Assembly (NCBI GenBank): GCA_013334825.1
Contig: JAAXWR010000001.1
Coordinates: 11,769-75,768 of the forward strand
DNA length: 64,000 nucleotides
Reading direction: 5' to 3'
Source of the DNA: Candidatus Yonathbacteria bacterium
Lineage (GTDB): Bacteria; Patescibacteriota; Minisyncoccia; Phycocordibacterales; JACNGX01
The notes below the pieces were generated by a model, which was not told where the DNA came from, did not search any database, and saw only the letters and a program-made list of their open reading frames with translations. Shown here piece by piece: positions 52,468 through 57,412 of the stretch. Numbering within the stretch: position 1 is the first letter of the stretch; every line of letters begins with the position of its first letter. The position numbers and the translations under genes are program-made.

Positions 52468-53401
52468 ATGTGTATGAACATTTCACGTATCGATAAAACA
52501 TCACGAAAGTGGTAGTAACGCAAATTAATATAGCGGTATATTATTTTTGAATAGTAACATATTGGATATTGAAAATTGTTTGTGATTTGGTATTTTGCAT
52601 TTGTCATTTCAATCACGAGTGATAGAGAAGATTTGATAAGAGAAAAAGAATTTTTTTTTACACACCTCTTTTCTTGTAACATGATAGTCATGTTCTCTAT
52701 AGTTTCGTGTATGTCTATGTTCGTTCTACATGCATGTTGCATGGTTTCCGCATGGTCTTTGAGAGTCATATCGATTTAAAAATTAACACTGTATATACGC
52801 TATCTTTGAAGTTTCGTCTATAACCGATGACCTCTTACCTATTTCCTAAACAAAACGCTTGACATTATTTTTCATTCGATTATACTAGCCGGTACGTATG
52901 GTAATGAACTTCACACGCAGGCGGCAATAAGAACACCGACTCGGGGTTCCTATTGTCCGCCCTCGCGGCGGTTTTTCATTATCAGACGGGCTCGTTGTCA
53001 ACTGAAGAAGATATCAAGAGTCTTAATCGTCTAGGGGAAATGTGAAGCGCTTCGTGCGTCGACATTTCCCGAACAAAGGAATGTATCCTTTGCAACACGC
53101 CAAGCGCGACGCATTGCTTCGCGCTTGGCGTAAAAAGAAACGCGGTTAAGGGCATACGGTGGATGCCTAGACTCTCAGAGGCGATGAAGGACGTGGCATG
53201 GCTGCGATAATCTTCGGCGAGGTGCCCAGCAACCTACGACCCGGAGGTCTCCGAATGGGGAAACCCTATCCGGTAAACCCGGATAGTCTCGGTATTATAT
53301 CGAGACGCAAACCAGGGGAAGTGAAACATCTCAGTACCCTGAGGAAAAGAAACCAATAGGAATTCCCTAAGTAGCGGCGAGCGAAACGGGAAGAGCCCAA
53401 A

Positions 53402-53726
53402 CCGAGCACCACTCTTTGATTTTAAGGTATACTATTCACATGTGGGTGGTATACATCATTCAGCAATCTTTTTCCAAAGAGATATATGTAGGAGTGACGA
53501 GTGATTTAACCAGAAGAATGGAAGAACATAACTCTCACAGAAAAGGATCCTATACGCGGAGAAAGAATGAATATGAATGGGTTCTTGTTTATGCCGAAGC
53601 ATATCGGGATAAACAAGATGCATATGTACGTGAGTTTCGTTTGAAACAACGTGGACGTGCAAAACAGGAAGTCCTTAAGAGAGCAGCACGAAGTCTGCTT
53701 CCTTAAAATCAAAGAGTGGTGCTCGG
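53402..53726 (+). other. 23S IVS 1 (domain I) bounded by 25-bp perfect inverted repeat, encoding a GIY-YIG protein
   Basis: CCGAGCACCACTCTTTGATTTTAAGG ... CCTTAAAATCAAAGAGTGGTGCTCGG. Confidence 0.8.
53440..53706 (+). CDS. GIY-YIG nuclease family protein (YhbQ-like), encoded inside 23S IVS 1
   Basis: 'MWVVYIIQQSFSKEIYVGVTSDLTRRMEEHNSHRKGSYTRRK...WVLVYAEAY' matches small GIY-YIG proteins (GIY...YVG, R, E, N). Confidence 0.8.
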   Translation: MWVVYIIQQSFSKEIYVGVTSDLTRRMEEHNSHRKGSYTRRKNEYEWVLVYAEAYRDKQDAYVREFRLKQRGRAKQEVLKRAARSLLP

Positions 53727-54026
53727 GGTCGTAAGGCGGTAATGTCGCTTTTATAGTGAGAGATACGTGTGAAGGTTAATGGAACCGACTGGGAAGTCGG
53801 ACCCTAGAGGGTAATAGTCCCGTACATGAAAACCAGATCCGATCTTTGTTACCGTTCTTGAGTACTCCAAGACACGAATAGCTTGGGGGAATTCGCCGGA
53901 ACTAACCGGCAAGGCTAAATACTCTGAGAGATCGATAGTGAACCAGTACCGTGAGGGAAAGGTGAAAAGAACCCCGGAGAGGGGAGTGAAATAGATCTGA
54001 AACCGTATGCCTACAAGGAGTCGGAG

Positions 54027-54131
54027 CCGAGCACCACTTTTGCTAAAGATGTGTTTATTCGAAATGTTATTGTGAGAAATTACAATATGTTTTTGTATTG
54101 AAATAACATCAGAAGTAAAAGTGGTGCTCGG
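54027..54131 (+). other. 23S IVS 2 at the helix-25 site, ORF-less
   Basis: 'ccgagcaccacttttgc' ... 'agtaaaagtggtgctcgg', inserted between UACAAG..GGAGC and GUGAC. This is a classic IVS site. Confidence 0.75.
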
Positions 54132-54744
54132 TGACGGCGTGCCTATTGAAGAATGAGCCAACGAGTTGATGTATGCGGCTTGGCTAAGTCCTTGTCGGAC
54201 GGAGCCGTAGGGAAACCAAGTGTGAATAGCGCGTATTTGGTCGTATACATCAGACCCGAAGCCAGATGAGCTTGCCATGAGCAGGGTGAACGCAACGGAG
54301 ACGTTGCGGGAGGCCCGAACCAGTTGGTCGTGCAATTCCATTGGATGACTTGTGGTAAGGAGTGAAAAGCTAATCGAATCTGGTAATAGCTGGTTCTCTC
54401 CGAAACAGCTTTAGGGTTGGCGTCGCGTGATCCTTCCGGGGGTAGAGCACTGGAAGGAACAAACAGGGGGAAACCTCGTTGTTCCTATCAAACTCCGAAT
54501 ACCGGAAATTATAGCGCGGCAGTTAGACTCCGGGGGCGAAGCTCCGGTGGTCGAAAGGGAAACAGCCCAGATCGCAATCTAAGGTCCCTAAATCTATACT
54601 CAGTACACTTAAGGAGGTGAAATTTCTCAGACAATGAGGAGGTTGGCTTAGAAGCAGCCATCCTTTAAAGAAAGCGTAACAGCTCACTCATTCAGAGATC
54701 TTGCGCCGCAGATGATCGGGGTTAAGTATAGTACCGAAGGTGCG

Positions 54745-54846
54745 GGCCCAGCTCCACTTTTGTTTATGACTTGTTGTACATCATATCGTCTTCCAAGATG
54801 TTATATATGTATGAACAAAAAGTCATGAGTAAAAGTGGGGCTGGGC
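54745..54846 (+). other. 23S IVS 3 at the helix-45 site, ORF-less
   Basis: 'cccagctccacttttg' ... 'taaaagtggggctggg', inserted after GUACCGAAGGUGCGG. Confidence 0.7.
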
Positions 54847-55920
54847 GGTAGGAGAGCGTTCCTGTCCGCGATGAAGCCCAAGCGTGAGCTTTTGGGTGGA
54901 GCGTCAGGAAGTGAGAATGTTGGCACAAGTAACCGCAAGGAAGGTGAAATCCCTTCCCGCCGAAATACCGAGGTTTCCTTCGCAATGTTAATCAACGAAG
55001 GGTTAGTCGGGCCTAAGGAGATGGTGAAAACCGTATCCGATGGACACATGGTTAATATTCCATGACCCGCATGCGTTCCGATGGAGTGACGGAGCGTTGT
55101 ACTGTGAGCAAATAATCGGATTTTTGTCCGTGCCGTGAGGATGGTTCCATAGGTAAATCCGGGAACCGCTAGTCCAAGCGGAGCGGAAATTCTGCGGTTC
55201 GCCGTAGGAGATTCACAGGAGCACGCTTCCAAGAAAAACTTCTCAGGTTAAACGTATGCGGACCGTACCGCAAACCGACACAGGTGGTAGAGTCGAGAAG
55301 ACTAAGGCGAACGAGTGATAATTCCCCAAGGAACTCGGCAAAAAAGCAGCCGTAACTTCGGAATAAGGCTTTCCAGCTCTTTCTTCGGAAAGGGCTGGAT
55401 GCAGCGAAAGTATCTCTGGCGACTGTTTATCAAAAACACAGCTCCCTGCGAACTCGCAAGAGGATGTATAGGGGGTGACGCCTGACCAATGCCGGAAGGT
55501 CAAACATGGATGGTCCAAGGGACGCAAGTTTTTTGGGCTGGGCTATGTAAGCCCCGGTGAATGTCGGCCGTAACTATAACGGTCCTAAGGTAGCGAAATT
55601 CCTTGTCTGGTAAGTTCAGACCCGCACGAATGGCGCAACGATCAGAGAACTGTCTCGGGGAACAGCTCGGTGAAAATACAGTACCGGTGAAGATGCCGGT
55701 TACCTACAGCTAGACGAAAAGACCCCAGGAGCTTTACTGCAACTTCATATTGGGTATGTGCTCTTACTGCGTAGAATAGGTGGGAGGCTTTGAAGCGGTT
55801 CTTTTGGGAGCCGTGGAGCCGACAGTGAAATACCACTCTGTAAGGGGGCATATTCTAACCCGTACGGCAAAACCGTGCGGAGACAGTGTGTGGTGGGTAG
55901 TTTGAGTGGGGCGCTCTCCT

Positions 55921-56288
55921 TCGGGATGGCATATGTGTAAACATATGGTATCCCGAAACAGGAGCGCCTCCGAGGTATCATCCGGTACCTGAAACAAATA
56001 AATGAGGGGGACGCCATACGGTAACGTATGTGTCGTGAACCAAGCTATATGCCGGAATATCCGAGTATCTTTTGTGTCGTTCTTCTCATTATGAAGAGAA
56101 CGGAACAGTACAAAAGTGCGGACAATCGGCAGGGAAGATGTATATGACAACATGTCTACATCCCCTCAGAGGCCATACGCTTGGATTCCTTGTTAAACAA
56201 GGAATAAGAGATGGTCCGATCTTCATGGCGACATGGAGTGTATATCAACCCGTTGATATACGGCCACTATTCATACTAGTGGTACCAG
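55921..56288 (+). mobile_element. about 370-nt insertion in 23S domain V (between GGGGCG.UCUCC and CCUAAA..UAACGGAGGAG), possible ORF-less group I intron
   Basis: The flanking exon sequence is continuous with the canonical 23S. The insert ends in G. No credible ORF. Confidence 0.45.
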
Positions 56289-56624
56289 TATGCCTAAACT
56301 GTAACGGAGGAGTCTAAAGGTTGGCTAGGCGCGAATGGACACCGTGCCGATAGTGTAATGGCACAAGCCAGCTTGATTGCGAGGCGTACATGCCGAGCAG
56401 GTGCGAAAGCAGAGCATAGTGAACCGATGGTTCGCTTTAGACGCGGCCAGAGATTAACGGATAAAAGCTACCCTGGGGATAACAGGCTAGTTCCGCCTAA
56501 GCGTTCAGAGCGACGGCGGAGTTCGGCACCTCGATGTCGGCTCAACTTATCCCGGGGCTGGAGAAGGTCCCAAGGGTTTGGCTGTTCGCCAATTAAAAAG
56601 TTACGCGAGCTGGGTTCAGACCGT

Positions 56625-56975
56625 TCAGGGGCGTATGATATGCGTATGCATGTCATAGGCCTCTGAACCAATCTGAACCCGAGGAAGACATCAATACGGC
56701 GGCATCATATAGCAATATATGATGAGAAGTTAACTGATATCGGTGAAATCCTTTTCACATGACCAGAAAAGGACAATACCGAGGGAATTATATTGTTTAC
56801 AATATATGCCCGTAGAGACTGCACGTTAACCGCCCAGCTTCATTTTTATCGCAAGGTGAGAGTGAATAAACCATGTTAAAAAGTGGTGCTGGGATGAAGA
56901 TATAGTCCGATCCCGTTGGTAACAGCGGTGTCATTCATAAAATCATATAAAGTATCTATGAATGGCTACATCATG
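56625..56975 (+). mobile_element. about 350-nt insertion at the L2593 (I-CreI-type) site of 23S, probable ORF-less group I intron
   Basis: 5' exon '...gggttcagaccgT', then the insert, which ends in G, then 3' exon 'cgtaagacaggttggtctcctatctgc' (= CGUGAGACAGUUCGGUCCCUAUCUGC). The upstream exon nucleotide is U and the terminal nucleotide is G, consistent with group I. Confidence 0.5.
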
Positions 56976-57412
56976 CGTAAGACAGGTTGGTCTCCTATCT
57001 GCTGTAGGCGTTGATTCTTGAGAAGATCCGTTCGTAGTACGAGAGGACCCGAATGGACTAACCTCTGGTGTACCGGTTGTTCCGCCAGGAGCACGGCCGG
57101 GTAGCTATGTTGGGAATGGATAACCTCTGAAAGCATCTAAGAGGGAAGCCAACTTCAAGATGAGGAATCGTTTGAAACTCCTCAGAGATGATGAGGTTGA
57201 TAGGCACCAGGTGGAAGCGCAGTGATGCGTTGAGCCGAGGTGTACTAATGCGTTGACGCGTTTCTTCTTGCGCCAAGCGCGGTTTGATGCCGCGCGGCGT
57301 GTTGCAAGCACTCTTTTTGTTCGGGAAATGCCGGCGTATGCCGCGTTTCCCAGACGTTGATTTTTTGATATCTTTTTCAGGGCACTTACGATTATTATAT
57401 AGTCGCATGTTG

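Follow-up and report, generated by a model that had tools for sequence, protein, structure and literature searches.

What are the insertions that interrupt the single 23S ribosomal RNA (rRNA) gene in the 64-kb stretch of DNA analysed here (the window), and did those that resemble one another arrive as mobile DNA? The host is an uncultured Parcubacteria/Paceibacteria bacterium of the Candidate Phyla Radiation (CPR), and two sorts of passenger are found in its gene: hairpin inserts that share a closing stem, the first of which encodes a GIY-YIG protein, and two group I introns. We propose that the hairpin inserts belong to a family of mobile hairpin elements, whose copies in rRNA behave as RNase III-type intervening sequences (IVS), and we would give this reading a probability of about 0.55. 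The gene, its hairpin inserts (with a further one in 16S rRNA) and the open reading frame (ORF) inside the first of them are:

53136-57267, + strand: 23S rRNA gene, 4132 nt, of which ~1250 nt are insertions; full-length match to Rfam LSU_rRNA_bacteria (2363 bits, model positions 1-2925).
53402-53726, + strand: hairpin insert 1, 325 nt (a 309-nt insertion in the Rfam alignment), encoding the GIY-YIG ORF; arms at 53402-53427 (5', CCGAGCACCACTCTTTGATTTTAAGG) and 53701-53726 (3', CCTTAAAATCAAAGAGTGGTGCTCGG), with a perfect closing stem of 26 bp.
53440-53706, + strand: GIY-YIG ORF, UPF0213/YhbQ-like, 88 amino acids (aa), in sense orientation, with its stop codon inside the 3' arm of insert 1.
54027-54131, + strand: hairpin insert 2, 105 nt, without an ORF, in the loop of helix 25 and an insertion in the Rfam alignment; arms CCGAGCACCACTTTTGC (5') and GTAAAAGTGGTGCTCGG (3'), closing stem of 19 bp with G.U pairs allowed.
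54747-54845, + strand: hairpin insert 3, 99 nt, without an ORF, in helix 45, mapped against E. coli; arms CCCAGCTCCACTTTTG (5') and TAAAAGTGGGGCTGGG (3'), closing stem of 27 bp with G.U pairs allowed.
From 63919, + strand: 5' arm of hairpin insert 4 (CCGAGCACCACTTTTGC), in the V2 region of 16S rRNA near E. coli position ~180, with an exact 12-mer match at 63921.

The insertion map was made by aligning the 23S gene to E. coli rrl, with the numbering calibrated via peptidyl-transferase landmarks. Five insertions stand out (~53402-53726, 54027-54131, 54747-54845, 55921-56292 and 56625-56975), lying in E. coli terms after ~270, in helix 25 (~550), in helix 45 (~1175), after U2262 and after U2593. 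Insert 1 occupies the loop of a domain I hairpin which is absent in E. coli, and which the bacterial consensus model places after E. coli ~270; we take this to be helix 15. These boundaries agree to within a few bases with those of a sequence-only reading of the same DNA, except that the intron at 2262 ends at 56292 and not at 56288. The Rfam run which that reading proposed for the 23S gene, using the large subunit (LSU) and Intron_gpI models, returned a full-length LSU and both introns above threshold.

The closing stem common to inserts 1-3 is CC(G/C)AGCNCCAC-UUUU / AAAA-GUGGN'GCU(C/G)GG, and the earlier claim that one stem is shared by the three was borne out both by arm matches and by inverted repeats. 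The arms of insert 2 can also be read as CCGAGCACCACTTTTG / AAAAGTGGTGCTCGG, with 54027-54052 and 54106-54131 pairing over 26 bp at 85%; those of insert 3 have the variant form CCCAGCTCCACTTTTG / AAAAGTGGGGCTGGG, in which the variable position is a U.G pair, and the arm variant CGAGCACCAC occurs three times in the window. Allowing up to two mismatches, the arm 12-mer AAAGTGGTGCTC has 14 matches in the window against 4.6 expected; in 100 shuffles the count never rose to 14. The 7 matches with at most one mismatch are all inside rRNA genes (among them 53404, 53713, 54029, 54118, 56880 and 63921), and the arms of insert 3, a two-mismatch pair at 54749 and 54832, are likewise in rRNA. The exact match at 63921 confirms the stem motif that had been noticed at 63919 in the 16S fragment, and over 32 nt this arm of insert 4 is 81% complementary to its 3' counterpart in insert 2.

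Folding of the inserts, also suggested at the outset, gave long hairpins with z between -9 and -11: insert 1 folds far better than shuffles (z = -11.2), as do insert 2 (-56.5 kcal/mol, z = -10.1) and insert 3 (-57 kcal/mol, z = -9.0). The window copies have the anatomy of IVS, in that they sit at helix tips (helices 25 and 45; also the helix 15 position and 16S V2) and are closed by terminal duplexes of 26, 19 and 27 bp. The sequence-only reading had called them IVS, meaning inserts excised without religation, and this is a label that we infer to be apt.

The product of insert 1 had been read as an 88-aa GIY-YIG protein, and Pfam agrees, with a match to PF01541 at 1.1e-16 (61.3 bits against a cut-off of 22.6) over profile positions 1-74 of 78. 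Its nearest solved structures are 1ZG2 and 1YWL, both UPF0213, and Y5, Y16, R26, H30 and E65 are among the residues invariant in 10 GIY-YIG homologues; by analogy with I-TevI and UvrC, we take these five to be of catalytic type. The model for group I intron-type GIY-YIG endonucleases, TIGR01453, gives 20.3 bits, below its cut-off of 56.05, over residues 4-36 only, and by Rfam the ORF-bearing insert is not an intron. The same element stands at the same site in L002, L003 and L009 (L-numbers denote comparison loci from other assemblies; L002 and L003 are the closest relative, a Parcubacteria metagenome-assembled genome (MAG), NIOZ-UU136). Against the orthologues in L002 and L009 the ORF has a ratio of non-synonymous to synonymous change (dN/dS) of 0.09-0.14, and its synonymous sites are close to saturated (pS, the proportion of synonymous differences, 0.69-0.80). 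Over this divergence the 26-nt arms remain 96% and 92% identical, with one compensatory double change (CTCTTTG/CAAAGAG to CTTTTTG/CAAAAAG). Because low dN/dS in the ORF and high identity in the arms are seen at the same divergence, both are evidently under purifying selection.

Homologues of the GIY-YIG protein were collected by protein similarity only, independently of arm sequence, and almost all come from Parcubacteria/Paceibacteria MAGs. Nineteen of the 21 are bracketed by 19-27-bp inverted repeats with the same core, the main arm types being two, ...CCAGCACCACTTTTTGG... and ...TCCCTCCCCAGTTTTGG... All eight copies tested by Rfam are inside 23S; by BLAST, most copies fall in helix 63, others at the helix 15 position and a single copy in 16S. 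Elements at helix 63, 15 of the 21, lie between the flanks ...ATAAGGCCT and CGCAGCGAAAG, and the orientation of the ORF is always sense. The consensus repeat of the family is YCC(A/G)GC-N-CCA(C/G)-TTTT(T)... / ...(A)AAAA-(G/C)TGG-N'-GC(T/C)GGR, around an interior that varies freely. A long form of ~305-335 nt carries one UPF0213-type GIY-YIG ORF in sense and is represented in the window by the helix 15 copy; short forms of ~85-110 nt carry no ORF, and in the window these are the copies in helix 25, helix 45 and 16S V2, together with a decayed copy in helix P8 of an intron. Short copies are seen in other genomes too, and within a genome the arms tend to share a lineage-specific variant: five in one 23S of a member of the Paceibacteria (L011), all with their own variant CCAGCCCCAG; four in L104, all of the GCACCAC variant; and one in L006, in helix 25. 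The agreement of arm variants between the coding and short copies of one genome holds in the window, L011 and L104 and fails in L006 and L094, and is therefore not taken as proof that nuclease and arms are matched.

When metagenomes were scanned with the arm pattern CAGCNCCASTTTT-N55-85-AAAASTGGNGCTG, at least 120 stretches were found, against ~2-15 expected by chance (a rough estimate). The genomic contexts, which rest on 127 hairpins among the matches listed, as do the shares given below, were:

31 of 127: rRNA genes, at no fewer than 12 sites in 23S and at least 4 sites in 16S.
10 of 127: adjoining an RNase P signature, 3 of them confirmed inside RNase P RNA by Rfam.
10 of 127: spacer of tuf-rpsJ type.
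9 of 127: 5' end of type IV pilin-like genes.
67 of 127: elsewhere, mostly intergenic.

The proposal that one IVS family has colonised multiple rRNA sites is supported by the copies in L011 and L094 described below, but the family is not specific to rRNA: about one quarter of the hairpins are in rRNA genes and about three quarters outside them.

Evidence of mobility comes from comparing sites. In L094, two copies at two 23S sites with different flanks are 99/100 identical, and in L011 two copies at different 23S sites are 93% identical. Between the window and its closest relative, helix 25 is occupied in both, with interiors 54% identical against 86-92% for the flanking rRNA; in L002, helix 45 holds a different insert and helix 63, short in the window, is filled, and P8 is extended in the window only. 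Near-identical copies at different sites, together with this turnover of sites between relatives, support mobility as read from sequence comparison. The family also resembles miniature inverted-repeat transposable elements (MITEs) in these near-identical copies, in the number of metagenome stretches given above, and in conserved terminal inverted repeats that are common to long coding and short non-coding copies. The copies associated with pilin genes have similar flanks on both sides, GxTTTAY / GGTTTAC, the right-hand flank being coding sequence.

Selection also appears to act on the transcribed hairpin. The sense strand folds better than the antisense in 34 of 39 rRNA-borne hairpins (p = 2.4e-6; means -49.0 against -38.9 kcal/mol, with 188 against 47 G.U pairs), and in 9 of the 10 RNase P copies. 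This advantage of the sense strand in stable RNAs indicates RNA-level selection, and since the tuf-rpsJ and pilin copies lack the bias, the full hairpin is maintained inside stable RNAs and elsewhere the arms only.

Helix 63, where most of the coding copies reside, has a short form in the window:

55372-55399, + strand: short hairpin of helix 63, TCCAGCTCTTTC-TTCG-GAAAGGGCTGGA, read from the sequence.

Its outer six pairs, TCCAGC/GCTGGA, are the outer arm of the elements that fill helix 63 in most relatives, and this hairpin is either what is left of an element since lost or a native helix that gave rise to the arms. A regular-expression search for a native helix 63 among the relatives matched the window only, and in L014 this helix is occupied by an unrelated insert of 215 nt whose stem differs.

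Several of the copies outside rRNA, and some unrelated inserts within it, are worth recording individually. RNase P RNA genes with a hairpin are found in L087 (6200-6950, minus strand), L028 (3130-3230), L069 (1586-1671) and L119 (2460-2560); the RNase P RNA of L087 holds both a short hairpin and a GIY-YIG copy, the latter with arms CCCCTCTTCAGTTTT / AAAACTGAGGAGGGG, and L132 has both kinds in the 23S leader. In the pilin-like genes (L121 608-708, L117 4616-4716, L092 5339-5439, L140 627-728 and 1583-1684, and L047, L056, L103 and L137) the hairpin encloses the start codon and leader, and its 3' arm AAAAGTGGTGCTGG encodes K-S-G-A-G, immediately before the prepilin cleavage motif FT(L/I)(L/I)E. 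Hairpins of tuf-rpsJ type (L035 1049-1148, and L036, L059, L066, L079, L126, L130, L070, L112, L129 and L139) share the coding-strand flanks CCTTTAC on the left and GTGCTCA on the right; in L035, the sole locus of this type with ORFs inspected, the hairpin is between the EF-Tu and S10 genes, a spacer in which it could function in processing or termination.

At L098 (12050-12628) a GIY-YIG gene stands between two direct copies of one ~95-nt hairpin, which looks like nested or duplicated insertions, and next comes a minimal palindrome, CCCAGCACCACTTTTGGTC-A-GACCAAAAGTGGTGCTGGG, that runs on into the start of a pilin-like gene; interior-less minimal palindromes are present also in L067 and L062. 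A sub-family with longer arms, TTGGACAGCGCCACTTTTCAC / GAAAAGTGGCGCTGTCCAA, and related interiors is found in L029, L039, L046, L077, L115 and L120, and L039 has a group II intron match at 8865-9011. Relatives' 23S genes also hold inserts bearing sense-oriented tRNA genes. The helix 45 insert of L002 (7316-7654), closed by a different stem of 21 bp, CTCAAAAACTTCATAGAGGAT, holds tRNA-Ala(GGC), the tRNA being at 7398-7470, and an insert inside the 23S of L018 holds tRNAs at 685-757 and 780-853, namely tRNA-Thr(CGT) and a tRNA with a CUA anticodon, called 'Pyl' by ARAGORN and a possible amber suppressor. Processing of such tRNAs would itself fragment the 23S rRNA.

We envisage that the element spreads at the DNA level into the helix tips of stable-RNA genes, or replaces them, and spreads also into intergenic DNA. 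The GIY-YIG copy would be the likely autonomous partner, on which the short copies may depend as MITEs do on a transposon. Transcribed within the rRNA precursor, the arms would pair into a perfect duplex of 19-27 bp that extends outward from the helix tip, and a double-strand-specific RNase, most likely RNase III, could cut it. The insert would be removed and the rRNA left fragmented but functional, as with classical IVS, and the excised long form could act as messenger for the nuclease. What the sequences show is how the inserts are built, that they form a broad family, that copies duplicate and turn over, that ORF and arms are under purifying selection, and that selection acts on the RNA where it is stable; we infer that RNase III excises the inserts, that the rRNA is thereby fragmented, that the ORF is translated and that the nuclease acts in any way on the arms.

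A number of observations weigh against this reading. All copies within the 64-kb window are in rRNA genes, and the link between nuclease and hairpin consists of co-occurrence only. The 88-aa protein is a bare domain without a DNA-binding extension and is below the intron-endonuclease threshold; GIY-YIG enzymes are not known as transposases, and no recognised transposase was found between the arms, where the only ORF is the GIY-YIG domain and no transposase family was matched. The rRNA copies show no target-site duplication, as the element replaces the helix tip and is not inserted in an intact loop. Most copies have unrelated interiors, as few MITE families do, and this would be explained equally well by selection on the arms themselves as by transposition. 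The sense-strand bias is absent outside stable RNAs (4/11 for the tuf-rpsJ and 3/9 for the pilin copies), and a signature search found no RNase III gene within the 64-kb window.

A more far-reaching form of the proposal, which we put forward tentatively, is that the GIY-YIG nuclease of the element acts specifically on the arms as its substrate. The elements would then be an unrecognised class of nuclease-driven hairpin element, with coding and MITE-like copies, favouring the helix tips of stable RNAs (23S, 16S, RNase P RNA and group I introns) and co-opted at some mRNA starts, as in the pilin leaders. In a stronger form still, either the nuclease or a dedicated, sequence-reading RNase would excise the hairpins from RNA, and the ribosome of these bacteria would depend on processing that is encoded by, or specific to, the element.

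The main rival to mobile elements is that the conserved stem is a signal used by the host at the RNA level: a site for a sequence-specific protein that binds or cleaves double-stranded RNA. Candidates would be an enzyme of RNase III or Mini-III type with a sequence preference, or a GIY-YIG protein acting on RNA, with rRNA, RNase P RNA, the tuf-rpsJ spacer and the pilin leaders as its targets. Such a signal would account well for arms that are as conserved as rRNA while interiors and synonymous sites are randomised, and for the same arms being found with hundreds of unrelated interiors, but near-identical whole copies at different sites point to duplication and not to convergence, and relatives differ by presence, absence or replacement of the hairpin. 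The recurrence of the hairpin at the orthologous tuf-rpsJ spacer (10-11 contigs, among the matches listed) and its enclosure of the start codon and leader in pilin genes would suit a host signal; against this, the copies in mRNA contexts have no sense-strand folding bias and a perfect A-form duplex gives little for sequence-specific reading. Purifying selection on the ORF and arms of orthologous copies would also be expected of a host signal, and the two readings can coexist. A host signal explains arm conservation with unrelated interiors and not near-identical copies at new sites; we consider it unlikely.

Less likely still is that the hairpins are lineage-typical expansion segments, retained in the mature ribosome without excision, with a likeness of stems that arose from duplication or gene conversion among rRNA helices. 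Expansion segments had been named by the sequence-only reading as the outcome that would count against insertions, and comparison with the closest relative falls half on each side: inserts are shared at the helix 15 and helix 25 sites, but the helix 25 insert has been replaced, and the states of helix 45, helix 63 and P8 differ. All the sites are surface helix tips of naturally variable length (helices 15, 25, 45 and 63), and a compact sense-strand fold is expected of a retained segment too; however, 325 nt with a conserved, selected ORF is atypical of one, and the same module is seen in RNase P RNA, an intron, spacers and pilin leaders. Moreover, perfect duplexes of 19-27 bp are the classical substrate of RNase III (PMC4990558), and short CPR inserts at the helix 25 and 45 sites have already been read as IVS (PMC11270868).

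Chance likeness or an artefact of assembly (collapsed repeats, chimeric metagenome joins) is scarcely credible, for although the repeated 16-nt arms could mislead assemblers and the organism is uncultured, none of the 100 shuffles reached the observed motif count, the same architecture is found in independent ENA, NCBI and JGI assemblies, and exon sequences rejoin exactly into conserved rRNA. Ends of IS200/IS605 type and archaeal bulge-helix-bulge introns were also considered and were dropped, as such structures or enzymes were not indicated.

The second kind of passenger lies in domain V, and one of its members carries a trace of the hairpin family:

55921-56292, + strand: group I intron L2262, 372 nt, without an ORF, after U2262, within the 5' strand of a hairpin that adjoins the P loop.
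56625-56975, + strand: group I intron L2593, 351 nt, without an ORF, after U2593.
56833-56893, + strand: hairpin P8 in the L2593 intron, formed by a degenerate copy of the element (CCCAGCTTCATTTTT ... AAAAAGTGGTGCTGGG), aligned as P8 by Rfam.

These two ORF-less insertions had been described as group I intron-like, one of them at the L2593 site, and that description stood. The Rfam model Intron_gpI (RF00028, gathering threshold 50) matches the L2262 intron at 55967-56238 with 52.9 bits, only just above the threshold, and the L2593 intron at 56671-56929 with 62.1 bits. Each follows a U and ends in G. At L2262 the junctions are ...CUCUCCU/UCGGG...GUAUG/CCUAAAC (slashes mark the splice sites) and removal restores GGGGCGCUCUCCU/CCUAAAC; at L2593 they are ...GACCGU/UCAGG...AUCAUG/CGUAAG and removal restores ...GGGUUCAGACCGU/CGUAAGACAG. 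Both introns are presumably spliced out with exon ligation. Pairings for P1 and P10 were sought by eye: in the L2593 intron UACG-GCGG could pair with CGUA of the 3' exon and CCGU of the 5' exon, and in the L2262 intron GGGGGA could pair with UCUCCU, both being short and behind a hairpin at the 5' end.

Neither window intron contains LAGLIDADG remnants. The orthologous L2262 intron of L002 carries a LAGLIDADG_2 ORF, and L002/L003 have an extra intron near position 1917 with a LAGLIDADG_1 ORF; the window introns look like endonuclease-free derivatives of the LAGLIDADG-carrying introns of relatives. The P8 copy includes the one-mismatch arm match at 56880, and L002 has a 5-bp P8 there instead. 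Position 2593 we take to be the I-CreI-type site of the LSU; position 2262 was not found as an LSU intron site in the literature searched. The former is also a listed intron site of CPR bacteria (PMC11270868).

The remaining features concern the rRNA genes and the processing of the 23S precursor:

53041-53144, + strand: 5' strand of the 23S processing stem, pairing with 57257-57352.
57257-57352, + strand: 3' strand of the same stem, pairing with 53041-53144.
57416-57523, + strand: 5S rRNA, Rfam 70.7 bits.
63758-64000, + strand: 5' part of 16S rRNA, Rfam SSU 87.8 bits, the first ~240 model positions, after which the window ends.

In the inverted-repeat search, the long stem that brackets the 23S gene appears as two inverted repeats of 40 and 37 nt with 78% complementarity, and is probably a stalk for processing of the RNase III type. 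The arrangement of the rRNA genes is unusual: they are not linked, and 23S-5S is followed by ~6.2 kb of ORFs and then by 16S on the same strand; from their translations, the ORFs of this interval include putative SecD-like and SecF-like membrane proteins. ARAGORN found no tRNA genes across the whole 64-kb window.

The architecture of rRNA insertions in CPR bacteria is already known, from the same kind of organisms and the same phenomenon. Inserts are present in 82% of CPR 23S genes (Tsurumaki et al. 2024, PMC11270868), and about half of them are group I introns, clustered in domain V with position 2593 included, while short non-intron inserts occur at the known IVS sites in helix 25 and helix 45 (PMC11270868). 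That study, which covered inserts of at least 100 bp in rRNA genes only, found GIY-YIG ORFs in non-intron inserts alone (30 ORFs, 15 in 16S and 15 in 23S), treated them as sparse and as outside homing, and cites an earlier study with the same protein families encoded by insertion sequences (PMC11270868). Its main text contains no report of a shared terminal stem or inverted repeat. Here, by comparison, GIY-YIG inserts and many short inserts form one family, which reaches RNase P RNA, an intron and intergenic DNA. Judged by the literature searched, a family united by one stem seems to be novel, and so does its extension outside rRNA.

Roughly half of the inserts in CPR bacteria are not introns, and these have so far been an uncharacterised remainder in which GIY-YIG ORFs were deemed sporadic. 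The conserved stem gives this remainder a unifying identity and a searchable signature, and ties together the GIY-YIG inserts, the short inserts of 23S and 16S, those of RNase P RNA and the intron, and numerous intergenic hairpins. It raises two testable questions: which agent cuts the stem or moves it, and whether the stem is a target of the UPF0213 nucleases, a large family to which no role has been assigned. In practice, surveys of CPR diversity that rely on rRNA can use the arm motif to recognise such inserts and trim them.

Among studied cases, the helix 45 IVS of Coxiella burnetii comes closest to the rRNA copies: RNase III cuts it, its terminal stem measures 28 bp, an ORF lies inside it, and two group I introns are present in the same gene (PMC4990558). 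The window inserts resemble classical 23S IVS generally in their sites at the tips of helices 25 and 45, their terminal inverted repeats and, in some, a small ORF. Further classical examples are those of Salmonella and Leptospira. The ORF of classical IVS is of S23p / four-helix bundle type, whereas here it is GIY-YIG; classical IVS at different sites have no common stem sequence and are not reported outside rRNA, in contrast to the hairpin family, which has both a common stem and copies elsewhere. Classical IVS are excised by RNase III without religation; for the rRNA copies described here such excision is predicted.

The two introns agree with known group I introns of L2593 and domain V in their Rfam core match, the U before the 5' splice site and the terminal G. 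They differ from relatives' introns at orthologous or neighbouring sites, which have LAGLIDADG ORFs, and the L2593 intron is unlike known introns in having its P8 built from a copy of the hairpin element.

As regards dispersed repeats, nothing relevant on palindromic or MITE-like repeats in Patescibacteria/CPR was found in the literature searched. The Correia elements of Neisseria are MITEs whose transcripts form hairpins cleaved by RNase III. The hairpin family would likewise include short, non-autonomous members, with conserved terminal inverted repeats and many dispersed copies, and likewise would be transcribed into hairpins that a double-strand RNase could cut, affecting neighbouring genes. 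In Correia elements the interiors are conserved, the target duplication is TA, and copies in rRNA are not known, whereas here the interiors are unrelated and the rRNA copies have no duplication. The only ORF between the arms is a GIY-YIG nuclease and not a transposase. That nuclease, in turn, is like the stand-alone UPF0213 / YhbQ-like proteins (1ZG2, 1YWL) in being a single domain of ~90 aa with the same pattern of conserved residues; the known members are free-standing genes with no role assigned, whereas the gene in the window is enclosed by a conserved inverted repeat within a stable-RNA gene.

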